From positions 1,248,001-1,312,000 of the forward strand of contig CAXXLL010000002.1 in assembly GCA_963662545.2 (NCBI GenBank): a stretch of DNA of 64,000 nt, read 5' to 3'. Below the pieces are notes generated by a model. That model was not told the DNA's origin. It made no database searches and saw only the letters and a program-made list of their open reading frames with translations. How positions within the stretch are numbered: position 1 is the first letter of the stretch; each line of letters starts with the position of its first letter. Positions 1-19,729 of this stretch are shown here, in pieces. A program made the position numbers and the translations under genes. Source of the DNA: Gammaproteobacteria bacterium. Its GTDB lineage: Bacteria > Pseudomonadota > Gammaproteobacteria > Ga0077536.

Positions 1-1
1 C

Positions 2-579: not shown

Positions 580-648
580 GGAACGGCATCGCCTCCCGGT
601 GGGTCCCCTGGACTTCAAATTCGGTGGAACGCGCGAAGACGTGTTCGG
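580..648 (+). pseudogene. 5' two-thirds fragment of tRNA-Sec (degenerate copy)
   Basis: 59/69 nt identical by manual alignment to 19634-19702; keeps the CTTCAAA anticodon loop and variable arm; no T-arm or CCA end. Confidence 0.85.
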
Positions 649-669
649 GCTAAATTACGGCACGCTCCT

Positions 670-1905
670 TCATTCTCGCCGGAGCGCTTCGATGGGATTC
701 ATGTTGGACGCCTGTATGGCAGGATATAGACCGGAAAATATGCCGATCGCGCCTGAAAACAGAACCGCCCCGATGAGCGAGACAAGGTCGATCCTGACCT
801 GCCATCCGGTAATGCCTCCCACAATGTATGCGATCACGACGCCTAGTGCAGCGCCGGCAAAGCCCCCTACGATGGTGACCCCTGCTGCTTCGGCTAGAAA
901 CTGTCGGCGAATATCTTTCTTGCGGGCACCGACGGATATACGAATCCCGATTTCCCGCGTTCGCTCCACCACGGACACCAACATGATATTCATCACGCTG
1001 ATGCCGCCGACAACAAGCGAGACGGCGGCAACGCACGCCAACAAGATCGTCAAGGTTTTTGACGCTTCTTTGCGCGCAGACAAAGCCGCAGCCGGATCGC
1101 GAACGAGGAAATCGTTATCTCGGCCGTCCGGAATTCGATGCCTATCCTTCAGAACCCGCTCGACGGAATCCCGGATGTCCGTGAGGCTTACAGATTTCTC
1201 TCCTTTAATTAAAACGAATGCAACAGCCGCCCTATTGACCTGATGATACCCACCCACGAGCCGCGATTTAGCGCTCGACATCGGTACAATCATCACGTCG
1301 TCTTGATCGCCACCGACGACGGAGAAGCCTTTGGGCTCTAGGATCCCGATCACGCGGAAGGGCACGCTACGGACTCTAATTATCGTTTCGAGTATCGCGT
1401 GTTCGGGTGATAATCTTTCGGCTACCGTTTGCCCGATTACGGCGACCTTTGCAGAAGACGCTACCTCCGCGTCCGTAAAGTTGCGGCCCAGTCTGATATC
1501 CTAGTCGCGGACGGCGAGATAACCCGGTTGCGTGCCGGCCAGATTGGTTCGCCAGTTTCTATTGCCGTAAACGGTCCGAACTTTGCCTGTGACGCCTGCA
1601 ACTGCAACTCGAACACCGTAAACTTCTCTTTGAATTGCGGCCGAGTCGGCTTCCGTGAGCGTGTGCTGGCCGCCCGTACCAGAACTCAGGCCGTCAGTCA
1701 TTCGAGTATTTGGTACGACCATTAACATGTTCGATCCGAGGCGCGAAATCTCCGCGTCGATTTGGCTCCTCGCGCCTAAACCGAACGACACCATCGCGAC
1801 GATAGCGGCAACGCCGATGATGATCCCAAGCATTGTCAGGGTCGTGCGGAGCGAGTGTCTCCTCAATGATCCCAGGGCCAGTCCAAGGTGGTCGACAATA
1901 TTCAT
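670..1905 (-). pseudogene. MacB-like ABC transporter permease (FtsX/MacB-PCD) interrupted by in-frame TAG at 1501-1503
   Basis: ORFs 1501..1905 and 670..1365 are in one frame. The stretch between them reads *DIRLGRNFTDAEV..KVAVIGQTVAERL. Motifs RTTLTMLGIIIGVAA, GGISVMNIMLVSVVERTREIGIR and NPIEALRRE. Confidence 0.88.
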
Positions 1906-1965
1906 GAGGCTGCAAACGGCCTGGTCACAATATTGGTCCGTTCACGCACACAACGCCCACGTTAG

Positions 1966-2649
1966 TCATAGTCCCTCCTTATTTAAATAGCCGTCTTTCA
2001 ACACAATTCGCTCGTTTGCCCTACCTGCCACATCATCGCTGTGAGTTACGATGATCAAAGTCGTTCCCTGCTCATTCAGATCGCCAAGCAAACGCAAGAT
2101 CTCGTCGCCCGTAACGCTGTCGAGGGATCCGGTCGGTTCATCCGCGAGGATTACCTTGGGGTTGTTGACGATAGCGCGCGCGATGGCGACCCGCTGCTGT
2201 TCACCACCGGACAACTGCGACGGCATATGAGTCGCGCGATGGTCGAGGCCGACCTTCCTGAGCGCTTCGTCAGCGCGGTCTCGGCGATCTTTCGAGCTAG
2301 TACCTGAATAGAGCAGTGGTAATTCGACGTTTTCACGAGCGGAACTTCGCGAAAGCAGCTGAAATGATTGAAATACGAATCCGATCTCTAGATTGCGAAG
2401 CTTTGCAAGCTCGGTACTGGTCAGGGTGTCTAGATCGTGGCCACAGAAGCTGAGTGAACCGCCGAACTCCTTATCGAGAAATCCCATCAGATTGAGTAGT
2501 GTGGATTTTCCCGAGCCGGACGGTCCGGTGATTGCCGTGAATGCACCGGGACGGATAGTAAAAGAGACGTCTATCAATGCCGGAATAATCGCGGTGGATG
2601 GTCCGTATCCCTTGCTGAGACGATTAGCTCGATAAAGAACCTCGGACAC
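1966..2649 (-). CDS. ABC transporter ATP-binding protein (MacB/LolD-like)
   Basis: Walker [10 protein letters not shown], signature [14 protein letters not shown], Walker [20 protein letters not shown]. Confidence 0.95.
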
Positions 2650-2675
2650 TTAAATGCCCCGCCCAGCACAGACCG

Positions 2676-3872
2676 CTAGTGGCGGTACCCAATGATAAGC
2701 TTGTCTCCAGGCGCCAGGCTGCCGGCCAAAACTTCCGTGAATTCACCGTTGGAGTAGCCGATTTCGAGGTTTCGTTGTTCCGGCTCGCCATCGATGCCGA
2801 TTGCCCAAACGGTCACCTTCGCAGAACCTTCCGGTCGCGCCTGGGCAGTACTAGGTTTGCTCATACCCGTCGGCATCTCGAACCGCAATGCCGCGTTCGG
2901 AATCTGGAGTACTTTACGATCTGCCGCGCTGATAATCTCAACCACGGCCGTCATGCCGGGGAGCATGAGCTCGTCCGGATTTTGCGCATCAATCACTACC
3001 GTATAGGTCACCACGTTTTGCACTATTTCCGGCGCCTTGCGTATTTGGCTTACGCGTCCCTCGAAACTTCGTTCTGGGTAAGCATCAACACGAAACACGA
3101 CGGACTGACCGGCGCGGATCTTACCGATGTCTGCCTCATCCACGCTGGCGTGGACTTCGATGAGTTTGAGGTCATGGGCAATGACAAACAGCTCCGGCGC
3201 TTCCAGGCTGGCCGCGACCGTCTGCCCTGGTTCAATGCTCCGCTTTATTACGATGCCGTCGATCGGCGCACGAATCACGGTCCGCTCGAGATCGATTTCA
3301 GCCTGCCTTAGAGACGCCCGTGCCACAGAAATGGCGGCTCGCTTAGTCTGGAGCTGCGCTTGCGACGACAAGACGGCGCTACGACTTTGCCGCTTTCGCG
3401 TGCGCGCCTCGTCCAATAAACTTATCGAGATACTGCCCTTTTCGAACAGCGCCTCCTTTCGAGCAAGGTCACGCTCCGCTTCTTCAAATTCCGCTTCTAC
3501 GCCTTTAAGCGCTGCGGTAGCCGACGCCGCTTCGGCGTTTGCCACCGCAAGCGCCGCGTTCAGTTCCTCGACACGCGAGGCAAACCGTTGGCGATCCAGG
3601 GTGGCAAGCGGTTGTCCATCGGTAACCAGGTCATTGAAGTCGACCGAAACTTGATCGATCCGCCCCGATAGCTGCGAGCTGACTTCGACACTGGTTACCG
3701 TCTGGATGGTGCCGGTCGCTAATACTGAATCCGTCAGGGGGGCTATGCTCGCCTCGGCAGTGGCGAAGACCGGGTCATATCCATCAGGTTTTGAACAGCT
3801 CTGTAATGCCAATAAGGGAAACAGGAAATAGCATGCCCGAATACGTGGTTTTATAAGCGTACGAAGAGTCAA
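2676..3872 (-). CDS. MacA-like periplasmic adaptor (membrane fusion protein)
   Basis: ATGTIQ..VEVSSQLSGRI, coiled coil, IRAPIDGIV, VDEADIGKI..GQ.V.F.VDAYP, LLPGMTA-like motif; adjacent to the ABC ATPase. Confidence 0.93.
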   Translation of the reverse strand: MTLRTLIKPRIRACYFLFPLLALQSCSKPDGYDPVFATAEASIAPLTDSVLATGTIQTVTSVEVSSQLSGRIDQVSVDFNDLVTDGQPLATLDRQRFASRVEELNAALAVANAEAASATAALKGVEAEFEEAERDLARKEALFEKGSISISLLDEARTRKRQSRSAVLSSQAQLQTKRAAISVARASLRQAEIDLERTVIRAPIDGIVIKRSIEPGQTVAASLEAPELFVIAHDLKLIEVHASVDEADIGKIRAGQSVVFRVDAYPERSFEGRVSQIRKAPEIVQNVVTYTVVIDAQNPDELMLPGMTAVVEIISAADRKVLQIPNAALRFEMPTGMSKPSTAQARPEGSAKVTVWAIGIDGEPEQRNLEIGYSNGEFTEVLAGSLAPGDKLIIGYRH

Positions 3873-4307
3873 CAGCGGCTTCGCGCTCTATTTCGTTTCG
3901 GAATCCGCACAAATCGCCCGGACCTTGGACGCTATCCTAAAGCAAAATTGCGTTCCGATTCTTCCAGGCGCCGTCGCGATCCATCACTTGGGTGGCATGG
4001 CTGATGGATCTCAGAGATTGCGCTACTCTCAAGATAATAATCGCGACTCGCGCGGCGCGCTGTCAACGCAGCAATTAACCACCGCGATACCTTGGAAATG
4101 AGGTCGAAACGTGCAATTGCTCAGACCAAAATATTCATGCCTCCACAAGATTTGGGGAGCTTGGGCGTCTCTACGAGCAGGACTGTCTTTCGTTCTTGCT
4201 GAGATCTTTACGGCCGCACAGAACGCAGCGATCGAGAGGTTATGGGAACGGATGGAAAAGAATGGCTCCCGAAGGAGCCATTCTCTACGAGTCATCTTTG
4301 CAGTCTA

Positions 4308-4673
4308 TTAATGCGTCCTATCCGGTATACCAAAATCGGCAAATGCCTCTTCGCAGCCAAAGCCGGGGGGCGAGGCCACCGTGTCCAGCGCGAAGAACAA
4401 GCTTATCGCCGGCGTCGCACCCGGCCCGTCACCAGGAAAAAATGCCGGGTTCTGCCAGAACGTACCCAGACCCTTCTCACCAATCGAGACTAGAAATGGG
4501 TGGAGGCCGCTATTTATAAACCCTAATCCATGTCCCTGGCAGGTCGGGTGTTCAGCAGCGTTTGAGGAACCCTTGCCCGCTCCCGGGGTCCCAGCCTTGC
4601 CACCAGCGATTGCACTTCCAGCAAAGAACATGGCGCCGACGAGCGTCAATACTGCGATTAATTTATTAGTCAT
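4308..4673 (-). CDS. Small secreted hypothetical protein (121 aa)
   Basis: ATG at 4673 preceded by AGGGAG; signal peptide MTNKLIAVLTLVGAMFFAGSAIA; Gly/Pro/Phe-rich mature part with two Cys. Confidence 0.7.
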   Translation of the reverse strand: MTNKLIAVLTLVGAMFFAGSAIAGGKAGTPGAGKGSSNAAEHPTCQGHGLGFINSGLHPFLVSIGEKGLGTFWQNPAFFPGDGPGATPAISLFFALDTVASPPGFGCEEAFADFGIPDRTH

Positions 4674-4839
4674 TACACACTCCCTATGGGTGAATAAAGG
4701 AACAAGCCAATGAGACCAGTTTTCTGATTCACTAAGGGTGAGTTCCTCATTCCCCGATATTCGTTCACACATTGATTGCCTGGCCGTCGGGTACGAAGGC
4801 AGGGACTGCTGCCAGGTGCTGTAGCTCGTTGATTCCGTG

Positions 4840-4905
4840 GGACTTCAAATCCGGTGGAACACGCGAAGGCGTATGCAGTGGGTTCGACTCTCAGTTCTTT
4901 CGCCA
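4840..4905 (+). pseudogene. 3' two-thirds fragment of tRNA-Sec (degenerate copy, att-like)
   Basis: 55/66 nt identical and gap-free versus 19664-19729; contains CTTCAAA, GTTCGACTC and ends TCTTTCGCCA. Confidence 0.88.
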
Positions 4906-5096
4906 AATCCCTGAGAGCTGATTCTTGAGACTCTAAGCTCCTCCCGCGAGACACACCTTGGCGGGAGATCCACCGATCTTTCCACCTCACGTAGCAGTAA
5001 TTGACTACTGAGCGGCCCTACGTCCGGGTTGTTCATAACCGCTCCGCACCATGACCGCTGAGTCGGTCTGGGCCGCTCCGCCGAGTGACTGCCGGC

Positions 5097-5128
5097 TTGA
5101 CCCTGAAGTACACTTCAAGGTCTATTCT
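5097..5128 (+). promoter_or_regulatory. MerR-family (ZntR/CadR-type) promoter-operator
   Basis: TTGACC (5097-5102), 20-bp spacer and TATTCT (5123-5128), overlaid by the dyad ACCCTGAAGT-AC-ACTTCAAGGT; long spacer plus dyad is the MerR hallmark. Confidence 0.85.
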
Positions 5129-5147
5129 GTCATCGGAGATGAAAATC

Positions 5148-5573
5148 ATGACTTATCTCAACATCGGTCAAATCGCTAAACGTACGGGTGTGACGGTCGA
5201 GGCGATCCGATTCTATGAAAAACAGGCGCTTCTTCCCGAGCCCCGGCGTAGTGCGTCGGGTTACCGACAATATCTCCCAGAGACAGCGAAACGCGTGCGG
5301 TTCATCCAGCGCGCCAAGGAACTCGGATTTTCGCTGAAAGAAGTCAATGCACTTCTATCATTACGCGATACACAGGATGGCTCCTGTGCCGATGTGAAGG
5401 TTCAGGCGTTGCAGAAAGTATCCGAGATTGAGCAAAAAATACGTGACCTAAATCGAATCCGCGACGCTCTAACGGAATTAGCGGAGAAATGCGGTGGCAG
5501 GGGCGATCTCAGTGAGTGCCCAATCTTGGACGCGCTCGATGAGATTGAGGATTTTGCCGATGGTTCGAGTTGA
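5148..5573 (+). CDS. Heavy-metal-responsive MerR-family transcriptional regulator
   Basis: IGQIAKRTGVTVEAIRFYEKQ..L.P.R..SGYRQY; RFIQRAKELGFSLKEV; three Cys (SCADV, KCGG, ECPIL); GGAG RBS before ATG 5148. Confidence 0.93.
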   Translation: MTYLNIGQIAKRTGVTVEAIRFYEKQALLPEPRRSASGYRQYLPETAKRVRFIQRAKELGFSLKEVNALLSLRDTQDGSCADVKVQALQKVSEIEQKIRDLNRIRDALTELAEKCGGRGDLSECPILDALDEIEDFADGSS

Positions 5574-5758
5574 ACGGATCTACGAACGCACTTGCGCCAA
5601 TACCGGAGCCGCTAGGAATCAACGATTACAAGTTATGGCCGCATACCCGGCGTCAATCAGATTGCCTTGGCGTCGGATTATTGATCGGCGCATCACTTTG
5701 GAATACGTGGTCGCGACGCCTCAAACACGGAATTGTCAACTGAATTAGGAGAAAAGTG

Positions 5759-6031
5759 ATGAGTGAGAAACGGCAGATTGAAATATTCAGCGCGGGCTGC
5801 TCGATTTGCAAGCACACCATTGATCTTGTCAACGAGATCACTTGTCCCTCCTGCGAGGTCACGGTGCTTGATATGCAAGACAAGTCGATTGCCGATCGCG
5901 CACGCGACCTCGGCATCAAATCGATTCCTGCGGTAGTAATCGACGGCAAGGTGGCCGATTGTTGTGCGGGACGTGGCGTGAATGCCGATACATTACGCGC
6001 CGCCGGCATTGGTCAGCCGCTTGGCGATTAA
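5759..6031 (+). CDS. Small thioredoxin/glutaredoxin-like protein (CxxC, CxxC, CC)
   Basis: IEIFSAGCSIC...CPSC...GIKSIPAVVIDGK..DCC; TAGGAG RBS. Confidence 0.85.
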   Translation: MSEKRQIEIFSAGCSICKHTIDLVNEITCPSCEVTVLDMQDKSIADRARDLGIKSIPAVVIDGKVADCCAGRGVNADTLRAAGIGQPLGD

Positions 6032-6136
6032 GGTCGCGCGAATCGATCTTTGCGTGCCAGCTTAAAGCTTTTGCCAAGTGGCTACGTAGGAAAATGACAG
6101 GCGATAAATCCCGATAGCAAGCGTTAAGAAAATTCG

Positions 6137-6349
6137 ATGTCTGAGCTCATCTTGCAATCGACGATCACGTGCCCGACGTGTGGGCATAAAAAGGAGGAAA
6201 CCATGCCGACCGATTCCTGTACGCGGTTCTTCCAGTGTGAGTCATGCGAATCATTACTGAAACCGTTCCCCGGCGACTGTTGTGTTTTCTGTTCTTATGG
6301 CTCTGTTAAATGTCCGCCGATTCAGGCCGGAGATTCTTGGGGTGCCTGA
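6137..6349 (+). CDS. GDCCVxC-family Cys-rich small protein
   Basis: STITCPTCGH...MPTDSC..FQCESC..LKP.PGDCCVFCSYGSVKCPPIQ, a recognisable metal-resistance-operon family. Confidence 0.88.
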   Translation: MSELILQSTITCPTCGHKKEETMPTDSCTRFFQCESCESLLKPFPGDCCVFCSYGSVKCPPIQAGDSWGA

Positions 6350-6719
6350 TAATTCGAGTGCGCCTAATGATTTAGTGCTTTCCAGGGCTTCTTGGTTTTT
6401 GTGGGGTATCCCCATGGCCTTGGGCGTTTCCGCAATATTTTGGTCGCTTGGGCGACCGTATTTGCTAGCCGTCGCATTTACGTGGGCGGGCTTAGCCTGT
6501 GTCGTGAACGCAAAACGCTGCGGACGCTTCCACTGTCACCTTACGGGTCCGCTATATCTGGGCCTCGGTTTGGTGTCTGGGTTAACGGGTCTGGGGATAT
6601 TGAACACCGACTGGAACTGGATCGGGCTGATATTCGCGATGGGAACCTTTATTGCTTACTTGCCGGAGTTTATCGGCTGGCGATACGTTCGGCGCCGATC
6701 GAGCGACGGTGCAGCCTAA
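6342..6719 (+). CDS. Small multi-pass membrane protein with Cys/His motif (putative metal transporter)
   Basis: GTG 6342 overlaps the previous stop; about four hydrophobic segments; ACVVNAKRCGRFHCHLTGP motif. Confidence 0.75.
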   Translation: MPDNSSAPNDLVLSRASWFLWGIPMALGVSAIFWSLGRPYLLAVAFTWAGLACVVNAKRCGRFHCHLTGPLYLGLGLVSGLTGLGILNTDWNWIGLIFAMGTFIAYLPEFIGWRYVRRRSSDGAA

Positions 6720-6797
6720 GAGCCTGCTCTGTCTAGGGGTGTGACTGGACCTGCGTATAAACGAAGACCCCATGTTCACGAATCACGAAGCATTCTG

Positions 6798-8273
6798 TCA
6801 GCCGATTACTTTAACTTCGTAGTCCTCCGCGCCGGCCTCCATCGTACGCTCGGTGAATGCATCCATGGAATGCGGCCACTGGGTCACCAGCCGTCCTGAA
6901 CTCGCGCGATAGTAGAAGTCGTTACCGCACTCGGCCTGCCACACGTCGACGGTGTTGATGTCTTTCTGGATCTGCTCATTGAAAGCAGCCATGACCGTAG
7001 GGCGAAGGTCAATCCAGACAATATTTTCATCGTCCATGCGTTTGAGTTGGCGCGTAATGTATTCGACCTGCCGCTCCAGCATGAAAAGAATGCAACCTTG
7101 ATTGGTGTTGGGTCCGTAGAGCATGAAGAGGTTCGGAAATCCGCTCGTCGTCATCCCGTAATACGCTTGAGCACCATCGCTCCAGGCGTCCTCGAGGCGC
7201 CGGCCGTTACGTCCGGTTACATCGAGAGCGGTAAGGTAAGTCGTGGTTTCGAATCCGGTCGAGTAGATGATGGTGTCGACTTCGCGGGCTTCACCATCGG
7301 CTGTGACGATCGAATTGGCCGTGATGCGTTCGATGTTTTCGGTCAGGAGTTCGACGTTGTCGCGATTGAACACCGGATAATAAACATCGGAAAACAACGG
7401 GCGCTTACAGCCAAAGGGATGATTGGGCGTCAGCTTTCGGCGCACATCGGGGTCTTTTACAACTTCAATCCGTTCCAGTCCCGCCTTCTCAATTTCGGCC
7501 AATACTGCCTTGTCCTTAAACGTGCACAGCGTGTTCCACGTTTTAAAGATTTCTTCGCGACTTTCCATCACGGCATCCGGGTTTTGACGAAAGTGCTGCC
7601 GCTCCTTTTTCGTATAAGGCGTATTAGGCTTGGGCACTACCCAGTTCGCCGTGCGCTGATAAAGGTGCAGTTGTCCGACGATAGGCGCGATCTCCGGAAC
7701 GAACTGGATCGCGCTCGCCGCGATACCGATAACGCCGACGCGCTCACCGTTGAGATCATGATCGTGATTCCAGCGCGCTGAATGAAAACACGTGCCTTCG
7801 AATTCATCGACGCCGGGTATGGCCGGCATGACCAGTTTATTGAACATACCGAGAGCACTGATGACACATTGAGCTTCGAGCTGCTCTCCCGATTCGGTGG
7901 TCAGGCGCCAGTGTTCCTGGTCATCGCGCCAGTGTGCGGCGGTAACCGCGGTATTGAAGCGGACATGAGCCCGTACTCCATACTTATCCGCGCAGTCATT
8001 GAGATAGATGAGGATCTCTTCCTGCCCCGCGAACGGCCGCGACCAATCATTTTTCTGCTCGAACGAAAACGAATAGAGATGGGATTGAACATCGCAACCG
8101 GCCCCCGGATAACGATTCCAGTACCACGTGCCGCCGATATCGTCCGCTTTCTCCAGAATCACGAAATCCTCGATACCGGCATTTTTCAGGCTGATCCCCA
8201 TACAGATGCCGGCCGATCCCGCTCCGATGATGATCAAGCGATGTCGATTGCTCTGCGCCACCTTGCCCTCCAC
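6798..8273 (-). CDS. Baeyer-Villiger / flavin-containing monooxygenase
   Basis: IIGAGSAG, GGTWYWNRYPGAGCD, BVMO fingerprint FEGTCFHSARWNHD, FPNLFMLYGPNT. Confidence 0.93.
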   Translation of the reverse strand: MEGKVAQSNRHRLIIIGAGSAGICMGISLKNAGIEDFVILEKADDIGGTWYWNRYPGAGCDVQSHLYSFSFEQKNDWSRPFAGQEEILIYLNDCADKYGVRAHVRFNTAVTAAHWRDDQEHWRLTTESGEQLEAQCVISALGMFNKLVMPAIPGVDEFEGTCFHSARWNHDHDLNGERVGVIGIAASAIQFVPEIAPIVGQLHLYQRTANWVVPKPNTPYTKKERQHFRQNPDAVMESREEIFKTWNTLCTFKDKAVLAEIEKAGLERIEVVKDPDVRRKLTPNHPFGCKRPLFSDVYYPVFNRDNVELLTENIERITANSIVTADGEAREVDTIIYSTGFETTTYLTALDVTGRNGRRLEDAWSDGAQAYYGMTTSGFPNLFMLYGPNTNQGCILFMLERQVEYITRQLKRMDDENIVWIDLRPTVMAAFNEQIQKDINTVDVWQAECGNDFYYRASSGRLVTQWPHSMDAFTERTMEAGAEDYEVKVIG

Positions 8274-8470
8274 CCTGCGTATTTGCGTTTCCGTAACTGC
8301 GACAACGCAACTATAAATAACTGTCGGCCTGATTGCACCATCGAAGCTTAGAATTAGCGGGGCTAGACGATGCCGGAGTCGGGCACCGTACTATATGGCG
8401 AGCCTGAGCGCGAAGATTTTGGGGTGACAAGACTAAGCACGAAGGACACGGCGAACACCAAGAAAATAGA

Positions 8471-8546
8471 TTAACCACAGAGATCACAGAGCTTATCTAT
8501 TAAATATTGGGTATTTCTCTGTGCACTCTGTGATCTCTGTGGTTAA
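8471..8546. repeat. CACAGAG-type palindromic element
   Basis: Perfect 21-bp inverted repeat TTAACCACAGAGATCACAGAG / CTCTGTGATCTCTGTGGTTAA around an AT-rich core, plus an extra CTCTGTG unit. Confidence 0.85.
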
Positions 8547-8684
8547 AAATCCCTAACAAAATTCTTACCAGAGTCGCCGCCGAGTTCTTCCATTGCCCGG
8601 TTTTTGTATGATGGGAATGAAATCGTTCTGCCTTTCGGCGCCGCCCGGAACGGTCGGCTTAGCGCTGAGGCGAGGGGAGCATTC

Positions 8685-8999
8685 ATGCTGTTGACGACAT
8701 TGGAATCGGTGCCCGGGAAGACCATCGCGAAGCATTTCGGACTGGTCCAGGGCAGCTCGGTGCGCGCGAAGCACGTCGGGCGGGACATGATGGCGGGGCT
8801 GAAGAACATTTTCGGCGGCGAGTTAAAGGGCTACACGGAGCTGCTACAGGAGTCCCGGGCCGAGGCCTTGGAGCGCCTGCAGCAACAAGCCGAGGCCGCG
8901 GGGGCTAATGCGATACTGAATATCCGCTTTTCCACCTCGTCGGTGGCCCAAGGGGCGGCGGAGATGCTTGCCTACGGGACCGCGGTCGTCTTGGAGTAG
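8685..8999 (+). CDS. YbjQ/UPF0145 family protein
   Basis: MLLTTLESVPGK..GLVQG..VRAKHVGRD..AGLKNIFGGELKGY..AYGTAV; GGGGAG RBS. Confidence 0.93.
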   Translation: MLLTTLESVPGKTIAKHFGLVQGSSVRAKHVGRDMMAGLKNIFGGELKGYTELLQESRAEALERLQQQAEAAGANAILNIRFSTSSVAQGAAEMLAYGTAVVLE

Positions 9000-9005
9000 C
9001 GGGCG

Positions 9006-9446: not shown

Positions 9447-9484
9447 AGGCCGCAACCCACGGAACCAATCAAGAGCGCCGCGCG

Positions 9485-11394: not shown

Positions 11395-11468
11395 TGAATC
11401 TTCCTCCGGCGATCTCGGTACTGATTTTGCTAGGGGCGGTTTCTATCACCGCTGCGGTGTTTTCGGAG

Positions 11469-12869
11469 TTATCGAGATACGGCTTCGAGAGAAGATTTCT
11501 CCGCGCGAGATCCGAGCTCCGGTACCAGCTCGGGCACGCCGCTCGTATCCCGTTGTGGACTGCCGCCACACGCGTCGCGAAGCTTCGGCGCACATTCCTC
11601 GGCGAAGTATTGCATCAAGTCCTCGATCTCGTGGCCTTCGAAGCCCGCCTTCTCGAAGAGCCCGGCGAACATCAGGTCTTCGTAACCGCAGGCTTCCTTG
11701 AGCTTCATGATCTTCTCGATGAGTTCATCGGGTTTGCCGACGAGCGCGATTTCCCCCTCGATCAACATTTCGGCAGTAACGCGCTCGCCGACGGGCAGCA
11801 GCAGGCCTTCGAAGAAGGGGCCGATGTAATCGAACTGCAGTTCGAGTCCCCGCTTCAGACGCTCGCGCTCGCGCGCATCGTCACGGCCCGGCAGGATCGG
11901 ATGGATGAAGCGTGCGATCCCGACGCCGCGCCGCTTCTCGGTATCCCAACCGTAACGCAGCGCCCCGCGGCCGAGGCGGTCGGGCCACTTTGCCTTCTCC
12001 GCAGCGTCGTAGTAGATCTCGATATTTTTTGCGAGCTGGTCGTTTGCCTCGCCGACAAAATAGCCGTTGACGCCGTGTTCAGCCGCCCAGCGGATCGAGC
12101 GTGGACTGGTCAGCGGCTGCCAAAGTTGGGGGTGGGGCTTTTGTATCGGTTGCGGAAACACGCTGATTTCTTTCAGGGTCGTGGTCGTTGCAACCACCGG
12201 ATTGCCACCCGCATAACTATCAGGGCCGCCGAGCTTCAATATGTCTTCGATACCGCGCTCGACTTTCTCCTGCGCGAAATAAGCCTTCGTGTGAGCGTGA
12301 TTCCACTTGGTGTAGCGCGGTGGAATAGAGAAGTTTTCGCCGCGATGTGAGAACGAAAGCTCGGTCCAGCATTTGATAATGATCTCGAATGCTTCCTCGA
12401 AGGCCGCGCGGTTCCGTTCCTGATCCTGAATCGTCGAGCCGTAGGGCCGCCCCAGCGTCTCGTTCTCGCGCGGCTGGTAACCGCGTCCGATCCCGCATTC
12501 GACTCGGCCGCCGCTCAGCACGTCCAGCATCGCGATCTGCTCGGCGAGGCGGACTGGATGGTGCCAGGTGATGATGTTTGCAGTCTGGCCGAGGCGGATG
12601 CGATGGGTGTGGGCCGCTATGGCCGTCTCGGATAACAACGGGTTCGGCGAAAACTCGGCGCCTTCAGGCTGAAAATGGTGCTCGGTCTGAAACCAGTAGT
12701 CGTAGCCCAACTTCTCGGCGAGTATGCCCTGACGCACGTGGTTGACGGTGGTGCGTTGCGCCGCCGCGTGCGCATCCGCTAGGGATCCGTCGGAGATCGC
12801 TAATCCGTCGGCGTTGTAGATTACGGGCAGATCGCTCGAACCATTGTGGAAGCAGCCCAGCTCAAACAC
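11469..12869 (-). CDS. LLM-class flavin-dependent oxidoreductase (long form)
   Basis: AEKLGYDYWFQTEHHF, HPVRLAEQIAMLDVLSGGRVECGIGRGY, PQPIQKPHPQLW. Confidence 0.92.
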   Translation of the reverse strand: MFELGCFHNGSSDLPVIYNADGLAISDGSLADAHAAAQRTTVNHVRQGILAEKLGYDYWFQTEHHFQPEGAEFSPNPLLSETAIAAHTHRIRLGQTANIITWHHPVRLAEQIAMLDVLSGGRVECGIGRGYQPRENETLGRPYGSTIQDQERNRAAFEEAFEIIIKCWTELSFSHRGENFSIPPRYTKWNHAHTKAYFAQEKVERGIEDILKLGGPDSYAGGNPVVATTTTLKEISVFPQPIQKPHPQLWQPLTSPRSIRWAAEHGVNGYFVGEANDQLAKNIEIYYDAAEKAKWPDRLGRGALRYGWDTEKRRGVGIARFIHPILPGRDDARERERLKRGLELQFDYIGPFFEGLLLPVGERVTAEMLIEGEIALVGKPDELIEKIMKLKEACGYEDLMFAGLFEKAGFEGHEIEDLMQYFAEECAPKLRDACGGSPQRDTSGVPELVPELGSRAEKSSLEAVSR

Positions 12870-12988
12870 CTTAAGATCCTCCCCTCGAAGCCTTAGGCCA
12901 TTTTATGTCCAATTAGGAGGCGCAGGCTACGCGCACCGGGCGCGGTCGCAAGATGTTAATCTGAGCTCTGGTCCAACAGGAGATCCGC

Positions 12989-13288
12989 GTGACGACAATC
13001 GTGATATTGGACATTCCGGCGACGGCCCAGACTCGCGGCGCCGTCCTGGAGACACTTCGCGAAGCGCTCGATGATACGCGAGCATTCGAGGGTTGTGAGG
13101 GCCTGGAATTGCTCGTAAACCAGGACGACGACGCGAATATCATCGTCTACGAGCGATGGCGCTCGCGCAAGGATTACGACAACTACTTCGCATGGCGGCA
13201 AAAGAGCGGGTTTTCCGCGAGTTTTCGGGCTCTGTTTCCTGGCGCGTCGACCGTTCGGAAATTCGACATCGAAAAAATCTACGACTAA
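12989..13288 (+). CDS. Antibiotic biosynthesis monooxygenase (ABM) family protein
   Basis: DTRAFEGC..ELLVNQDD..IIVYERWRS..DY..Y..WR; CAGGAG RBS. Confidence 0.85.
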   Translation: MTTIVILDIPATAQTRGAVLETLREALDDTRAFEGCEGLELLVNQDDDANIIVYERWRSRKDYDNYFAWRQKSGFSASFRALFPGASTVRKFDIEKIYD

Positions 13289-13374
13289 AGCGAACAATTC
13301 TTCGGCAACGGGGTACGCGCTAACAGTTGACAGTTGAACGCGTGCCTGTAAATCTTGTCCCAAGAGCCTGAATC

Positions 13375-13746
13375 ATGTTGAAACACTGCCGAATCGCCGC
13401 TTCTCTGATTGCGCTCGCTGTTGCCATCGCGCCGGTTACCTGTGTCTGCGCCGGTTGGACGGGCCTGGACGCGCCCGTAGCTGTGATCACCGATACCGCA
13501 TCCGATTGCCATTCCAACGTGCCCGCGCCGGAAGTCGCTGGTGATGAAGCCTGTCCGGGATGCGACGATGGCTCGCCGGCCGACGTATCGAAAACGCCAT
13601 TCGAACCATTCAATCCGGGCCCGTTCGCTTTAGATTTCGCTTCAAGCTTTGCGTCTGCACAAGATCGTAGTGCGACACCCGTCCACCGTCTCCGACAGTT
13701 CAGGCGGCCGACGCCGGTTAGCTTGAACGTCGTTTTGCTGATCTAG
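13375..13746 (+). CDS. Small exported Cys/His-containing protein preceding cus operon
   Basis: Hydrophobic N-terminus, TCVC, DCH, CPGC; ends LNVVLLI, as in leader ORFs of metal-efflux operons. Confidence 0.65.
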   Translation: MLKHCRIAASLIALAVAIAPVTCVCAGWTGLDAPVAVITDTASDCHSNVPAPEVAGDEACPGCDDGSPADVSKTPFEPFNPGPFALDFASSFASAQDRSATPVHRLRQFRRPTPVSLNVVLLI

Positions 13747-13836
13747 CCAACCCTGCCTCGTCGGCCGCGCTCATGCGCGGCTGTGAACACATCCGTTCCC
13801 GCACTTCGCCAGGGCGTAGACCCCGAGGAGGCGTTG

Positions 13837-15150
13837 ATGAGACAGCGATCACCACGCGAGCCAGCGGCTTCGCAATCGAATCGAAACATTAAGTACCGGG
13901 ATCACGGCGCGAGCTTATTGATAGCGTGCGTGGCGTCGATGCTTTGCGCCTGGAGCGCGGGGGTTACCGCCGAGTCGGTGCCGCTGACCTTCGAGGAAGC
14001 GATGGTCCTCGCGGTTTCGCGGGCCGATCCGACTTTGATCAGGCACGATGAACGCGCCGCGGCATTGGAAAACCGAGCGGTCGCCGCGGCGCAGTTGCCG
14101 GACCCCGAAGTTCTATTCGGTTTTGCCAACTGGCCGGTCGACTCGTTCGACTACGACCAGGAGCCGATGACCCAGATCCAGGCCGGCCTGCGGCAGCGCT
14201 TTCCACGCGGCGATACGCGCTCAATCCTTGGCGCCCGGCGCGAAAGTGAAGCGCAGCTTGAGCGCGCGCGACGGTCGCTGCGATTGCGCGAGATCACACG
14301 TGCGACCCGGGATGCATGGCTCGAACTCTATTACCTGTCGCACGCACGAGACGTCGTCGACGCGAGCCGCATTACAGTCGCAGAACTCGTTGACGTCGTG
14401 CAGGCGAGTTTCGCCACGGGTCTTCAAAATAATCAGGATCTGCTGCGCGCGGAACTCGAACTCAGCCTGCTCGACGATCGCGCATTCGAAATCGAGCGCC
14501 TGATCCAGCGGCGCCGTGCCGATCTGGGACGCCTGATCGGCGAACTCGACGCTTCGCGTGATGTCGCACGGGAGTTACCGTCGTGGCCCGCATTGCCGCC
14601 GCAAGAGACCATTGACGAACTGATAGTGGACCACCCAGCGGTGGCCGTGGAAGATGCAGCGATTACCGGCCGCGAACATGACGTAAGCCTGGCACACGAA
14701 CAGTACGACCCTGGCTGGGCGCTGGAAGCCGGGTATGGCATGCGCAGCGGCGGACGCGCGGATTTCGCTTCCGTGATGGTGACAGTGGAAGTGCCCATTT
14801 TCACTGATAAACGTCAGGACCGTGAGCTTGCGGCATCCGAGCAGGAACGCGCCGCCGCTATTCTTGACCGCGATGCGATTTTGCTGTCGCTTCGCCGACA
14901 GACACAACACGCTCTTGCAGATGCCGAAAGATTTACCGAGCGCGTGGCCTTATACCGCGAAATCGTCGTCGACAGAGCGGACGGTACCGCCGCGGCTGCG
15001 CTCGACGGCTACCAGAGTCAGGTCGCCGATTTTGCAGAGCTGATCCGTTCGCGACTGGCGGCGCTGGATACCGGGCTCAAGCTGAAGCGGCTGGAGGCGG
15101 ATCTTGGCAAGGCCTATGCCGAACTGGCCTATCTGTTGGGGGAGCGCTGA
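13837..15150 (+). CDS. TolC/CusC-like outer-membrane efflux protein
   Basis: AAQLPDP..FDYDQEPMTQ..GLRQRFPRG..; GAGGAG RBS; first gene of the CBA cluster. Confidence 0.9.
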   Translation: MRQRSPREPAASQSNRNIKYRDHGASLLIACVASMLCAWSAGVTAESVPLTFEEAMVLAVSRADPTLIRHDERAAALENRAVAAAQLPDPEVLFGFANWPVDSFDYDQEPMTQIQAGLRQRFPRGDTRSILGARRESEAQLERARRSLRLREITRATRDAWLELYYLSHARDVVDASRITVAELVDVVQASFATGLQNNQDLLRAELELSLLDDRAFEIERLIQRRRADLGRLIGELDASRDVARELPSWPALPPQETIDELIVDHPAVAVEDAAITGREHDVSLAHEQYDPGWALEAGYGMRSGGRADFASVMVTVEVPIFTDKRQDRELAASEQERAAAILDRDAILLSLRRQTQHALADAERFTERVALYREIVVDRADGTAAAALDGYQSQVADFAELIRSRLAALDTGLKLKRLEADLGKAYAELAYLLGER

Positions 15151-15151
15151 C

Positions 15152-16465
15152 ATGAATCGTCTCGTCGGGTCTCTTACATTGATAGGGTTTGGCGTAGTGC
15201 TTGGAGTGGCCGCCACGCTGTTCAGAAGTGAGCTCAATCGCGGCCAAGCGATGCAAAGCGGGGAGGGTGATCCTGAGGTTCTGTATTGGGTCGCACCGAT
15301 GGATCCGAGTTTCCGGCGCGATGGTCCGGGTACTTCACCGATGGGCATGGATCTCGTTCCGGTCCATGCCCGCCAGGGTGAAGCAGGCGGCGACAACGCT
15401 GTCCGCATCGAACCATCGCTGATCAATAATCTCGGTGTCCAGACCGTGGTCGTCGAGCGCAAGGTTCTACGCGAGAAGATTCGAACCGTGGGACGGATCG
15501 AATATAACGATGAACGAGTCGCACACGTACATTTGCGTGCGTCGGGGTGGATTCGACGTCTTGCCGTGCGTGCCGAAGGTGAGCGCGTGCGGCGCGGTGA
15601 TTTGTTGTTCGAGGTGTATTCGCCGGATCTCGTCAAAGCGCAGGCCGAATTTATCCAGACGCTGAAGAGTGGCCGCAAGGAACTCATCGCGGTGACCCGT
15701 GATCGTCTTCGCGCGCTGGCTATACCGAAGTCGCTGATCGATGCACTCGAACAAAACGGCAAGGTTCAGCAGAACGTGCGCGTTTACGCGCCGAGCAGCG
15801 GCGTCGTCGCTCAACTCAACGTTGCGGACGGCAAGTTCGTCAAACCCGATTCCGACATCATGGTCATCGCTGAACTCGATCAACTGTGGTTGATCAGTGA
15901 TGTCTTCGAGTCCCATGCGGATCTGGTTGAGGTCGGTGCCCGCGTGACGGCCCGTACGGCGTTCGCGCCGGGTGAACGCATCACGACACAGGTCGAATAC
16001 ATCTATCCCAATCTCGATCCCATAACCCGCACTATTCCGGTGCGCGCGCTGATTGAGAACAAGGACGGGAGACTGAAGCCCGGGATGTTCATGACCGTGT
16101 CGATAGAGTCGGTGGCGCGGCCGCCCGCTTTGGTGATTCCCAGCACGGCGTTGATACGTACCGGGAGCGAGGAGCGGGTTATCGTTGCATACGGTGACGG
16201 GCGTTTCCGGCCCGCCGCCGTCGAGAGCGGCGCCGAGGCGGACGGCATGATTGAGATCGTCGCCGGGCTTGCAGAAGGCGAACTGGTCGTCGTCTCGGGA
16301 CAGTTCCTGATCGATTCGGAAAGTAGTTTTGCCGGCGCCAGTTTGCGATTGTCTGCGGGAACCGGAAGTGGCGAAATCATCTCCGGCGACCGTGAACATG
16401 CACAAGACCCCGCTGAGGGTGGACGTTCGCCGATCGACTTCAAACCGCCGGACCCATCACCGTGA
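15152..16465 (+). CDS. cusB: CusB-like periplasmic adaptor
   Basis: YWVAPMDP..DGPGTSPMGMDLVP metal-binding motif, YSPDL..AQ.E, LKPGMF, VVSGQFLIDSES. Confidence 0.9.
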   Translation: MNRLVGSLTLIGFGVVLGVAATLFRSELNRGQAMQSGEGDPEVLYWVAPMDPSFRRDGPGTSPMGMDLVPVHARQGEAGGDNAVRIEPSLINNLGVQTVVVERKVLREKIRTVGRIEYNDERVAHVHLRASGWIRRLAVRAEGERVRRGDLLFEVYSPDLVKAQAEFIQTLKSGRKELIAVTRDRLRALAIPKSLIDALEQNGKVQQNVRVYAPSSGVVAQLNVADGKFVKPDSDIMVIAELDQLWLISDVFESHADLVEVGARVTARTAFAPGERITTQVEYIYPNLDPITRTIPVRALIENKDGRLKPGMFMTVSIESVARPPALVIPSTALIRTGSEERVIVAYGDGRFRPAAVESGAEADGMIEIVAGLAEGELVVVSGQFLIDSESSFAGASLRLSAGTGSGEIISGDREHAQDPAEGGRSPIDFKPPDPSP

Positions 16466-19400
16466 TTACAAGCGTCATTCAATGGTCGCTCGATAACCGC
16501 GTGATCGTGCTGCTGGTGTCCATGATCTTAATGGCGGCTGGTGTGTTCAGTATTCTACGCACCCCGCTCGACGCCATTCCGGATCTGTCGGACGTGCAGG
16601 TGATCATCAAGACCCCGTACCCCGGTCAGGCCCCGCAAGTGGTGGAAGACCAGGTGACCTATCCGTTGACTACCGCGATGCTGGCAGTGCCACGCGCGAT
16701 AAGCGTTCGCGGCTATTCGTTTTTCGGCGATTCCTATGTCTATGTCATTTTCGAGGACGGCACCGATCTCTATTGGGCGCGCTCGCGCGTGCTCGAATAC
16801 CTGAGCCAGGTTGCCGGCGAGCTGCCGGAATCGGCAGATCCTGAGCTGGGACCTGATGCGACCGGGGTTGGCTGGGTTTATCAGTATGCGCTCGTTGACC
16901 GCAGCGGGCGGCACAACATTGCGGATCTGACCAGCCTGCAGAACTGGTTCTTGAGGTTTGAACTGCAAAGCGTACCGGGCGTCGCCGAGGTCGCGACCAT
17001 CGGCGGCATGGTGCGCCAGTATCAGGTGACGGTCGATCCGGAAAAATTGCGGATCTTTAATTTGACCCTGACCGAAGTCCGGCGCGCCATCGTCGCTGGC
17101 AATCAGGAAGTTGGGGGATCCGTCATCGAGCTCGCCGAAGCCGAATACATGATTCGCGCGCGCGGCTATGTATCCTCAGTAGAAGATCTGGCCGCAATTC
17201 CTGTCGGCCGCCTCGCGAACGGTACGCCGGTAATGCTCGATGACATCGCGATCATCGAAATCGGACCGCAGATGCGGCGCGGGATTGGAGAACTCAATGG
17301 CGAGGGCGAAGCCGTTGGCGGCGTCATCATTATGCGCTGGGGTGAGAATGCGCTCGCGACAATCAATGCGGTCAAGCAGCGGCTCGAAATCCTGAAGCGC
17401 AGTCTGCCCCCGGGCGTCGAGGTGGTGACGACTTATGATCGTTCATCGTTGATCGAGCGCGCGGTGGCCAACCTCAAGGAAAAGCTGACGGAGGAGTTCG
17501 TCGTCGTCGCGCTGTTGTGCGCACTTTTCCTGCTGCACCTGCGATCGTCGCTGGTCATCGTCCTGACCTTGCCGCTCGGCATCTTGTGCGCTTTCATCGT
17601 CATGAATCTGCAAGGGATCAATGCCAATATCATGTCGCTAGGCGGCATCGCCATCGCTATCGGGACGATGGTGGATGGTGCGATCGTCATGCTCGAGGCG
17701 GTACACCGCCGCTTCGAGCAATCGCCGCCCGCGAACGCTGCCGACCGCTGGCGGCTGGTGGGGGAAGCGGCGCGGCAGGTCGGCCCGGCGATCTTTTACT
17801 CACTGCTTATCATTACCGTCAGCTTCATGCCGGTGTTCGCGCTTGAAGCTCAGGAGGGGCGGCTGTTCAAACCACTGGCCTTCACGAAAACCTACTCTAT
17901 GGCAGCGGCCTCAATTCTGGCGATCACCTTGGTGCCCGTACTCATGGGTTATTTCGTTTGTGGGCGCATTCTGCCGGAGCACAAAAACCCCATATCGGCG
18001 ATATTGCGGGCGGTCTATCGACCGCTCCTCACGTTCACCGCGCGTCATCCCCTCATGGTGGTGATTGTTTGCGCGGCGGTCTCCTTGACGGCAGTGGTGC
18101 CGGCCACGCGCCTGGGCGCCGAGTTCATGCCCGACCTCGATGAAGGCGACATACTCTACATGCCGAGTACGTTTCCCGGAATTTCGATCGGTAAGGTACG
18201 ACAGGTGCTGCAGCAGACCAACAAACTCATTGCTACCGTGCCGGAAGTCGATACCGTCTACGGCAAGGCGGGACGCGCCGACTCTGCAACCGATCCGGCA
18301 CCACTGACCATGATCGAATCTACCATCCGGCTCAAGCCGCGTGCCCAGTGGCGCGAAGGCATGACGACCAAGAGCATTCGGGCCGAACTCGACCGCATCG
18401 TACAGCTCCCCGGCATTTTGAATATCTGGGTGATGCCGATCAAGAACCGTATCGATATGTTGGCGACCGGCATCAAGACGCCGCTCGGCATCAAGGTCGC
18501 GGGTCCGGATCTCAAGACGATTGCGGAAATTGGCGAAGCCATCGAGCTCGCGCTCAAGGAGGTGCCGGGCACCGCCTCTGTATATGCGGAACGCGTGGTC
18601 GGCGGTCGCTACATCGAAATCGATGTGCGCCGCGAAGAAGCGGCCCGATTCGGCATGAGTGTTGCCGACGTTCAGGATATCGTGCGCTCAGCCATCGGCG
18701 GCTCGGTGATTTCCGAATCGGTCGAGGGCCTTGAACGCTATCCGATCAATCTGCGCTTCCCGCGCGATTATCGTGATTCCGTAAAGAACCTGAGGAACCT
18801 TCCGGTCGTCACTTCAAGTGGCGCGCAGGTGCGGCTGGCACGGCTTGCGAGCATCGATATCGTCGATGGGCCGCCGATGATCCGCAGTGAAGATGCACGC
18901 TTGAATGGTTGGATTTACGTCGATATCACCGGCCGCGATCTGGCGTCGTATGTCGAGGAAGCGCAACGCGTGGTGGCTGCAAAGGTCGCACTTCCCGCCG
19001 GCTATTCGCTCGGCTGGTCGGGTCAATTCCAATACATGGAAAGGGCAAAGGAACGGTTGCGCTTAATCGTGCCAGTCACGCTCGCCATTATCGTCATCAT
19101 TCTGTTCCTGGCTTTCAGGCGAGCCGCTGAGGTCTGCATGGTCCTGTTGAGCGTACCGCTCGCCTTGTCAGGTGGGATCTGGATCCTATATTTGCTCGAT
19201 TACAATCTGTCTATTGCCGTGGCCGTGGGTTTCATTGCCCTCGCGGGGCTCGCCGTCGAAACCTCGGTGGTCATGCTGGTGTTTTTGAACGAGTCGTATG
19301 AAAGTGCGATTTCCCACAGCCGTCAGGCAGGTCGCGCGCCGACAGCGGAGGAATTACGAAATGCAGTCAAAGAGGGCGCCATACTCCGCTTGCGGCCGAT

Positions 19401-19605
19401 CGTAATGACAGTGACAACCGTCATTTTCGGCTTGCTTCCAGTGATGCTGGGGAGCGGGACGGGTTCCGAAGTCATGCGCCGTATCGCAGCACCCATGGTC
19501 GGCGGCGTGGTCAGCGCGACGGTGTTGACCCTGTTGGTATTGCCTGCGATGTATTTGTTGTGGCGTCAGGCTGGGTTGCGGGGCACTGCAATGTTTAGCC
19601 CATGA
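16462..19605 (+). CDS. cusA: CusA/CzcA heavy-metal RND permease (Cu/Ag type)
   Basis: PLDAIPDLSDVQVII, LGPDATGVGWVYQY, EFMPDLDEGD, PIKNRIDMLATGIK, GSEVMRRIAAPMVGG. Confidence 0.95.
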   Translation: MITSVIQWSLDNRVIVLLVSMILMAAGVFSILRTPLDAIPDLSDVQVIIKTPYPGQAPQVVEDQVTYPLTTAMLAVPRAISVRGYSFFGDSYVYVIFEDGTDLYWARSRVLEYLSQVAGELPESADPELGPDATGVGWVYQYALVDRSGRHNIADLTSLQNWFLRFELQSVPGVAEVATIGGMVRQYQVTVDPEKLRIFNLTLTEVRRAIVAGNQEVGGSVIELAEAEYMIRARGYVSSVEDLAAIPVGRLANGTPVMLDDIAIIEIGPQMRRGIGELNGEGEAVGGVIIMRWGENALATINAVKQRLEILKRSLPPGVEVVTTYDRSSLIERAVANLKEKLTEEFVVVALLCALFLLHLRSSLVIVLTLPLGILCAFIVMNLQGINANIMSLGGIAIAIGTMVDGAIVMLEAVHRRFEQSPPANAADRWRLVGEAARQVGPAIFYSLLIITVSFMPVFALEAQEGRLFKPLAFTKTYSMAAASILAITLVPVLMGYFVCGRILPEHKNPISAILRAVYRPLLTFTARHPLMVVIVCAAVSLTAVVPATRLGAEFMPDLDEGDILYMPSTFPGISIGKVRQVLQQTNKLIATVPEVDTVYGKAGRADSATDPAPLTMIESTIRLKPRAQWREGMTTKSIRAELDRIVQLPGILNIWVMPIKNRIDMLATGIKTPLGIKVAGPDLKTIAEIGEAIELALKEVPGTASVYAERVVGGRYIEIDVRREEAARFGMSVADVQDIVRSAIGGSVISESVEGLERYPINLRFPRDYRDSVKNLRNLPVVTSSGAQVRLARLASIDIVDGPPMIRSEDARLNGWIYVDITGRDLASYVEEAQRVVAAKVALPAGYSLGWSGQFQYMERAKERLRLIVPVTLAIIVIILFLAFRRAAEVCMVLLSVPLALSGGIWILYLLDYNLSIAVAVGFIALAGLAVETSVVMLVFLNESYESAISHSRQAGRAPTAEELRNAVKEGAILRLRPIVMTVTTVIFGLLPVMLGSGTGSEVMRRIAAPMVGGVVSATVLTLLVLPAMYLLWRQAGLRGTAMFSP

Positions 19606-19633
19606 GGCGCATCTTTTTGATAGGATTGCAGGC

Positions 19634-19729
19634 GGAAGAGCATCGTCTCCCGGTGGGGCGCCCGGACTTCAAATCCGGTGGAACGCGCGAAGGTGTGTTT
19701 GGTAGGTTCGACTCCTACCTCTTTCGCCA
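19634..19729 (+). tRNA. selC: tRNA-Sec (anticodon UCA), 7/5 fold
   Basis: GGAAGAG/CTCTTTC acceptor, G discriminator, CCA; 6-bp D-stem CGTCTC/GGGGCG; CCGGA-CTTCAAA-TCCGG; long variable arm; GTAGG-TTCGACT-CCTAC; resembles E. coli selC. Confidence 0.9.

Follow-up and report, generated by a model that had tools for sequence, protein, structure and literature searches.

In enterobacteria, the islands associated with selC, the gene for the selenocysteine tRNA (tRNA-Sec), are of the LEE, SHI-2 and PAI-I types and lie downstream of the gene, where they have an adjacent P4-type integrase and, at the end away from the gene, a short 3' direct repeat. The selC locus described here has the same target gene and also carries accessory cargo, but it is laid out differently. 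It lies in the window, which is the whole stretch of 64,000 nucleotides that was analysed (C2:1248001-1312000 of genome G000, a gammaproteobacterial genome of 5.58 Mb in 3 contigs), and it comprises a working selC gene, two selC fragments and some 19 kb of additional DNA. This DNA separates the sel operon from the live selC, upstream of which it lies, and contains no integrase; downstream of the live gene there are short repeats and an insertion sequence (IS) of the IS1595 family, again with no integrase, in a further departure from the enterobacterial islands. The locus is probably a degenerate, integrase-less island at a tRNA-Sec gene, the product of at least two events before the host separated from its congener G002, with one selC copy (alpha) split and dead and a second copy (beta) in working order.

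Islands at tRNA genes have been collected by Islander (Hudson, Lau & Williams 2015, PMC4383910), in whose account integration leaves a regenerated tRNA gene together with a displaced end fragment. In the tallies given there, the fragment is a 3' one in 3760 of 3919 islands and a 5' one in 159, and the site is centred on the anticodon in 2083 of the 3919. Three sublocations are named, the anticodon loop, the T loop and the T/acceptor junction, the variable arm not being one of them, and the rules deem a 5' fragment downstream of the gene, or a 3' fragment upstream of it, illegitimate. How well does the present locus fit this scheme? The likeness is considerable in that an intact tRNA gene (starting at 19634) and co-oriented end fragments (580-649 and 4840-4905) are found on the same replicon, all on the plus strand, with the 5' piece starting at tRNA position 1 and the 3' piece ending at the tRNA 3' end. 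The start of the 3' fragments is centred on the anticodon, the 5' fragment lies upstream of a regenerated gene, and the insert, at about 19 kb, falls within the rule of 2-200 kb, is absent from the same site in G019, a relative from another genus, carries accessory cargo and bears marks of more than one event in succession. The differences are that no integrase lies in or overlaps the island, which therefore fails the filter, and that the fragments overlap by 40 nt and bracket a macAB-like block of DNA (module 1, 650-4839) as if a second, dead copy had been split. With respect to the configuration rule, the pair 580-649/19634 conforms and the pair 4840-4905/19634 does not.

Tycheposons, as outlined in their description (Hackl et al., bioRxiv 10.1101/2020.12.28.424599), carry tRNA-associated tyrosine recombinases and replication modules and show presence and absence at the level of strains. 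As far as that outline goes, the selC locus is similar in the growth of an island beside a tRNA gene, in the partial tRNA snippets and in the degenerate elements inside. It differs in having no tyrosine or large serine recombinase in or near the island, in that the deletions seen in G002, the one close comparison, ignore the snippets, and in that the 15 contig joints listed, of 33, all lie away from the copies; the locus is not a tycheposon. An earlier note on this DNA had likened the 5' fragment upstream of the gene to what tycheposon-type elements leave behind, but in the Islander figures this is a known minority configuration of islands (PMC4383910), and it is the 3' fragment upstream of the gene that is the odd one. 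The locus is best filed as the ordinary debris of past island integration, that is, as a degenerate tRNA-gene island.

The working gene and its fragments

A single tRNA-SeC gene is found by ARAGORN, at 19634-19729 on the plus strand, and with 62.2 bits against the Rfam model RF01852 (gathering score 47) it is the sole tRNA-Sec above the cut-off across the genome. When the gene and its flanks were compared with the whole genome by BLASTN at E <= 10, 18 matches were returned, of which 4 are significant, the other 14 having E >= 0.05. Beyond the gene itself, these are the two window fragments and a fourth piece on another contig, C3, outside the window (Table 1), so that the genome-wide comparison proposed in the earlier note has yielded an extra copy (C3:2491585-2491650). 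The three co-oriented copies that the note had described in the window were reproduced with the same identities to the live gene, 59/69 for the 5' fragment and 55/66 for the 3' fragment, as were the CTTCAAA anticodon loop kept in all copies and the 28 nt that separate the cusA stop from the start of selC. The right end of the 5' fragment coincides with the junction of the variable arm and the T stem, and the window 3' fragment has a 21-nt stretch at the anticodon arm that is identical in the live gene. Because the window fragments reach only 22.4 and 24.4 bits against the tRNA-Sec model, where the cut-off is 47, they are to all appearances not functional tRNAs. They have tRNA positions 31-70 in common, the overlap of 40 nt mentioned above, and because such overlapping fragments bracket module 1, this module appears to sit inside one old selC copy, alpha. 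The remaining DNA up to the live gene is module 2 (4906-19605), which extends from a MerR regulator to cusCBA.

Might the copies simply reflect collapsed or chimeric contigs? Repeats carry a general risk of this kind, and there are Logan contigs that end within the live tRNA gene (19652-19673). However, a Logan contig of run X6 (19449 nt) spans window 1-16803 with 1 mismatch, while contigs of runs X9 and X1 cover 1-5342 and 212-675, respectively, with no more than 1 mismatch, and the genome is in only 3 contigs. Since contigs from different studies bridge both fragments and module 1, the selC copies are not assembly artefacts, an outcome that the earlier note had named as one that would refute it. 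One of the bridging runs may stem from the source sample itself, and the refutation for the fragments holds on condition that at least one of these runs is independent of it; for the locus as a whole an artefact is scarcely credible. No contig joint was seen at the tRNA copies among the 15 joints listed of 33, contigs being unable to reveal rare junctions.

The alleles of the fragments indicate where they came from. In a table of alleles across the family, the variable arm and T stem of both window fragments are of the genus type, and for this reason the fragments are taken to be displaced pieces of the host's own gene. The 3' fragment keeps the TGGG/CCCA T stem that is also present in the live selC of both congeners, and it is the live gene of G000, not the fragment, that departs from this state. 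Thus the compensatory T-stem change pointed out in the earlier note is real but runs in the opposite direction, the live gene having changed and the fragment having kept the state of the congeners. The second T-stem pair switches between A-T and G-C repeatedly across the family, on which ground a chimeric origin of the live gene (5' part of genus type, 3' part of g16 type) was rejected; the idea would have matched the position of CusA's best relative, which lies in genus g16. In the C3 fragment the variable arm is of a different type, closest to those of genera g18 and g8, and the T stem is unique; the fragment lies in strain-specific DNA among IS21, IS91 and IS6 elements. Given this non-native allele and the strain-specific, IS-rich surroundings, it would appear to have arrived with foreign DNA. 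The orphan fragment (L045 9986-10051) adjoins two IS21, one truncated and one full; transposases of IS91 and IS6 occur within 10 kb, and contig C3 has no live selC.

A TG-n-TAGGAT motif is present 8-16 nt upstream of all live selC genes in an alignment of the family, and the same alignment includes a decayed copy before the 5' fragment; the motif region that is duplicated before the live gene and before the fragment extends over about 27-33 nt. The motif is putatively a promoter, and a scan for consensus sigma-70 promoters upstream of the live selC called no site. The possibility that a full-length but heavily mutated alpha runs on into macB was also considered and rejected, as the matches past position 70 are the last macB codons; the motif at the macB end is presumably the usual C terminus of the FtsX family.

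The ancestral junction and its relatives

The selC loci of 41 relatives were compared with 1.5 kb either side of the gene. In 36 of the 41, the immediate upstream neighbour of selC, encoded on the same strand, is selB or the beta-lactamase family gene blaX; 15 loci have selB at a distance of up to about 115 nt, and 19 have blaX. In none of the 41 is cusA upstream. The complete genome G019 has selA-selB-blaX-selC adjacent to each other, which represents the empty site, and about 5.4 kb downstream of selC it carries the selD fusion that marks the ancestral downstream frame. In G000, selA and selB are found just upstream of the window, and 11 nt separate the end of blaX from the 5' selC fragment. 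As reconstructed from these loci, the ancestral order is selA-selB-blaX-selC ... selD. Because blaX adjoins selC in G019 but only the 5' fragment in G000, about 19 kb (650-19605) has been inserted into the ancestral blaX-selC junction of G000, and the 580-649 piece is the remainder of selC in its original place. The view in the earlier note that selC served as an insertion point of accessory DNA is borne out by the empty site in G019 and the 19 kb in G000. More generally, relatives differ in the genes that they have between selB and selC.

How old the insertion is can be judged from the congener G002, which is about 90.6% identical to G000 over 10.2 kb of neighbouring DNA. Its 5' fragment is the orthologue of that in G000, with which it shares the right breakpoint and three derived states, and as fragment and breakpoint are common to both genomes the insertion predates their split. 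Between this fragment and its live selC, apart from 131 bp, G002 keeps only, in the same order as in G000, the last 52 codons of macB (98% identical) and the last 45 codons of merR (82% protein identity), and on the scale of the window its island breakpoints are at 840/5423 and 5557/about 19607. Their positions are within macB and merR and do not coincide with the tRNA copies. The earlier note had looked to breakpoints of presence and absence at the copies in relatives, and had counted their absence among the things that would speak against it; in G002 the breakpoints are elsewhere. The 5' fragments of G000 and G002 agree at 56/70 positions (80%), compared with 91.7% for blaX, which is as expected of a sequence without constraint.

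In G001, the third member of the genus, selB and selC are separated by about 7 kb of unrelated genes without any selC fragment, and the 3' flank of selC differs among all three congeners. The small gene right after selC in G002 (L041 2090-2705) corresponds to C3:1451834-1452424 in G000 (90% identical), which marks a rearrangement breakpoint between G002 and G000 at the 3' end of selC. The selA gene of G002 (L040 16699-18150, G002:C67) is split into open reading frames (ORFs) of 224 and 250 aa, through either a frameshift or an assembly error.

Beyond the genus, a family sample of 81 genomes was available, the order comprising the same 81. The window, C3 and G086 3' fragments have unrelated flanks, yet all of them extend from GGACTTCAAA or GACTTCAAA as far as the tRNA 3' end: both G000 fragments begin at GGACTTCAAA in the anticodon stem, and the G086 fragment begins 1 nt later. 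As three independent fragments start within 1 nt of each other, the 3' pieces are read as the classical signature of attachment-site (att) scars. Other selC 5' fragments were not found in the 81 family genomes. Another genome, G045, has on its contig C419 two full-length and near-identical selC genes (L069 2421-2518 and 3953-4050) 1.4 kb apart, and because of this pair it can be said that two full-length copies may coexist in the family. The flanks of the G045 pair differ on both sides, and the contig has no integrase. Plasmid and phage collections searched with the tRNA-Sec gene gave no att-like piece, the matches consisting of full-length selC on large rhizobial and other replicons and of 46-nt matches in 5 records of the phage collection.

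Where, then, is the recombinase? The genome has 35 matches to PF00589, the nearest being about 250 kb from the window on either side, and a genome profile search found none between C2:997622 and C2:1617247. The only genome match to PF00239 is at C2:2551529, which is 1.2 Mb away, and there is none in the island, while the island's unnamed ORFs match nothing in Pfam or NCBIfam. The lack of an integrase recorded in the earlier note is confirmed by these searches. Integrase genes were likewise absent beside the G086 fragment and the G045 selC pair, and none (0/26) of the PF00589 matches of the 5 relatives without the ancestral neighbour lies on their selC contigs.

Routes to the present arrangement

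On the preferred reading of a degenerate island with a dead alpha and a working beta, the locus would be ordered as blaX, alpha 1-70, module 1, alpha 31-96, module 2, the live copy beta and selD. A tyrosine integrase crossing over at the anticodon loop would displace the 31-96 piece, such that the window 3' fragment would be the attR-type scar of module 1. We infer that a tyrosine integrase made the cut, and the order of events and the manner in which beta arose are inferred likewise. An integrase gene normally adjoins the regenerated tRNA gene. In one route, the left copy would have been regenerated and later deleted back to position 70 together with the integrase gene; in the other, the element would have carried positions 31-70 only, never restored the gene and killed alpha outright. 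Either route would be tolerable only if beta already existed. Beta (19634-19729), which is full-length with its own upstream motif and stands after module 2, would then supply the tRNA-Sec. On this reading nothing at the locus is mobile today, its pieces decaying neutrally and its cargo being lost, and it possibly represents the remains of a tandem island array.

Several observations weigh against this history. The macB remnant is identical at 166/171 positions (97.1%) between G000 and G002, above the 91.7% of blaX, which may reflect an exchange of module 1 more recent than one old event would suggest. G002 is in 150 contigs, and the 131 bp before its selC match nothing in module 2. No selC-linked integrase is found anywhere in the family sample, and the right half of module 2 has a genome-like GC (guanine plus cytosine) content (59-62.5%) and in-family homologues, and may not be foreign. 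The origin of beta is explained by no single known step. The 3' fragment lies upstream of the live gene in the configuration that Islander rejects, and for that reason the history needs at least two integrations and a deletion, or else an unusual attP. The end of the 5' fragment, between variable arm and T stem, resembles a structural boundary and not a random deletion endpoint.

This last point leads to the alternative of a single 5'-type integration, in which the 19 kb would be one composite island with an attP made of the upstream motif and positions 1-70. Such an event would displace the 5' piece of the host gene to the left and regenerate a live gene at the right end, with a crossover that may lie in the long variable arm of tRNA-Sec, and the internal 3' fragment would be a scar that the element already carried. 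In its favour, one event would account for the 5' fragment, the live gene and the duplicated motif with no need of a prior second copy; the end of the fragment coincides with that of the variable arm, and the configuration is a known one, represented by the 159 of 3919 islands in the Islander tally (PMC4383910). Yet it leaves the internal 3' fragment unexplained, as the circular island would hold a selC split by module 1, which moves the problem to the donor. There is, moreover, only the one event, common to G000 and G002, with no site specificity shown at position 70, no second 5' fragment in the 81 family genomes and no integrase, and we consider this explanation unlikely, if worth keeping in view. 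Quite improbable, in our judgement, is an extension of it that would make selC a two-sided target, with a site at the anticodon loop and an integrase crossing over in the Sec-specific variable arm. The element would bring its own upstream motif and positions 1-70, and islands would grow upstream, between the sel operon and selC, while still being movable by a recombinase encoded elsewhere.

Site-specific recombination could also be dispensed with altogether, the copies being ascribed to local duplication of selC and illegitimate insertions and deletions, with boundaries that coincide by chance. IS and small repeats abound in the genome, both flanks of the locus are rearranged from one congener to another, no recombinase gene is present and G045 provides a case of plain whole-gene duplication; nevertheless, chance sits badly with three 3' fragments in unrelated flanks that start within 1 nt and are all exact to the tRNA 3' end, and with copies that come without duplicated flanking DNA, and we hold it to be improbable to a slightly greater degree. 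The proposal of the earlier note was a working system of selC-targeted cassette accretion with the recombinase supplied in trans, that is, encoded elsewhere in the genome, for which candidates are not lacking among the 35 tyrosine-recombinase matches. Compatible with it are the 21-nt identity at the anticodon arm between 3' fragment and live gene, the varying gene content between selB and selC, and the differing 3' flanks of selC among congeners. What makes active accretion very unlikely is that the arrangement is common to G002 and decayed, that the G002 breakpoints lie away from the copies and inside macB and merR, that the cargo includes a pseudogene, that the repeats are only 83-86% identical and that no joint at the copies is among the 15 contig joints listed. 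Were the 3' fragment to recombine with the live gene, furthermore, the one working selC would lose its 5' part. The proposal is not upheld.

The preferred reading makes the locus a worked example of a tRNA-gene island long after the loss of its recombinase, where att scars survive as decaying pieces of tRNA gene. One selC copy is dead and split and the other working, macB is turning into a pseudogene, and a sister species is losing the island piece by piece through deletions. It also carries a caution, in that tRNA snippets at cassette edges are no proof of a live delivery system. Automated island finders that need an integrase and a 'legal' configuration of fragments would miss or reject such a locus. 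Of wider interest are the position of the island upstream of selC and the fragment boundary at the Sec-specific variable arm, which, if it recurs elsewhere, would be a new sublocation among tRNA integration sites.

Cargo and surroundings

The features of the locus are collected in Table 1, where gene families were assigned by Pfam and NCBIfam profile searches.

Table 1. Features of the selC locus and significant BLASTN matches of the live gene (coordinates are those of the window, except for the match on contig C3).
Feature	Coordinates	Strand	Evidence and remarks
blaX, beta-lactamase family, 3' part	2-568	+	PF00144; ~412-425 aa whole, start upstream of window
selC 5' fragment, apparently dead	580-649	+	tRNA positions 1-70; decayed copy of conserved upstream motif
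MacB-type ABC permease pseudogene	670-1905	-	in-frame TAG 1501-1503; FtsX and MacB_PCD (Pfam) on two ORF halves
ABC ATPase, MacAB-like module	1966-2649	-	PF00005 118 bits; NCBIfam LolD/MacB-like
MacA-like membrane-fusion protein	2676-3872	-	PF16576/PF13437
two small ORFs (88, 154 aa), head of module 1	4029-4772	-	no Pfam/NCBIfam match
selC 3' fragment, apparently dead	4840-4905	+	tRNA positions 31-96, anticodon stem to 3' end; genus-typical allele
MerR-family metal-responsive regulator	5085-5573	+	PF09278/PF13411
module 2 mixed cargo	5756-12869	mixed	weak thioredoxin-like ORF, flavin monooxygenase, two YbjQ, M48 peptidase, two luciferase-like oxidoreductases
flavin monooxygenase	6798-8273	-	module 2
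cusCBA-type heavy-metal RND (resistance-nodulation-division) efflux operon	13783-19605	+	outer-membrane factor PF02321; CusB-like PF16576 + HMBD; CusA/CzcA PF00873
functional tRNA-Sec gene (beta copy)	19634-19729	+	anticodon TCA; ARAGORN, RF01852; TG-n-TAGGAT motif upstream
IS1595-family insertion	~20419-22099		transposase 20483-21340; PF12762/PF12760; just downstream of selC
selD fused to pyridine-nucleotide-disulfide oxidoreductase domain	24177-26462	-	TIGR00476 279.9 bits (cut-off 125); TIGR03169 482.9 bits
BLASTN, live gene against itself			100% identity; E 1.6e-60; full length
BLASTN match	576-648		86% identity; E 2.6e-18; tRNA positions about -4 to 69
BLASTN match	4840-4905		83% identity; E 3.7e-13; tRNA positions 31-96
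BLASTN match	C3:2491585-2491650	-	88% identity; E 3.2e-17; tRNA positions 31-96

The family of blaX is given by a PF00144 match to the upstream part of the gene and to its G002 and G019 orthologues, with which it has tblastn identities of 93% and 66%, respectively. Within module 1, the permease gene is regarded as a pseudogene because an intact macB homologue of 401 aa (L085) aligns straight through the in-frame stop (tblastn; 1893-673, in one frame, 38% over 407 aa). The MacA-like adaptor has no close relative in any of the collections searched, the best identity being 46% among the 81 family genomes, 42-47% in all species genomes (35-47% over the best 80 loci) and 42-46% in JGI metagenomes (35-46% over the best 80 loci), and a search for the donor of module 1 by way of this adaptor recovered no intact element with an integrase. 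The GC content is 53-56.5% over window 1001-9000 against 58% in the genome, and it is because of this low GC and of an adaptor with no homologue above 47% in any search that module 1 looks foreign.

In module 2, the regulator at 5085-5573 scores below the cut-offs of the MerR, CueR and ZntR models. The two luciferase-like oxidoreductases are encoded on the minus strand, and homologues of these and of the flavin monooxygenase (70-74% DNA identity) are located elsewhere in G001 and G019. The CusA pump reaches 1212.9 bits against TIGR00914 (cut-off 701); its best identity within the family is 72%, and none was found in the 2 congeners. The family annotation supports the description of the cargo in the earlier note as efflux and metal-resistance genes.

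Immediately 3' of the live selC, at 20039-20192, there is a tandem repeat with units of ~40 bp, of which related copies occur elsewhere on C2 and C3. The IS1595 element that follows interrupts a sequence (20217-22680) that is 89-91% identical to C2:1175026-1175801, with inverted ends at both junctions; it was rejected as the agent of the island, its flanks being contiguous in that paralogue. In the selD fusion the oxidoreductase domain is N-terminal, and the same fusion is present in G019. On contig C3, a stretch of 5134 bp (L045 1075-6208; C3:2482674-2487807) is 100% identical to G001:C15:80198-85331, although the selB genes of G000 and G001 share only about 70% of their DNA positions, and the IS21 beside it is 99% identical to at least five G001 sites; the identity would point to either a very recent transfer between species or cross-contamination. 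Finally, a ~170-bp repeat at 29384-29555 recurs on both large contigs, where its copies number well over 200, are 70-98% identical and often occur in both orientations, and it looks like a miniature inverted-repeat transposable element.

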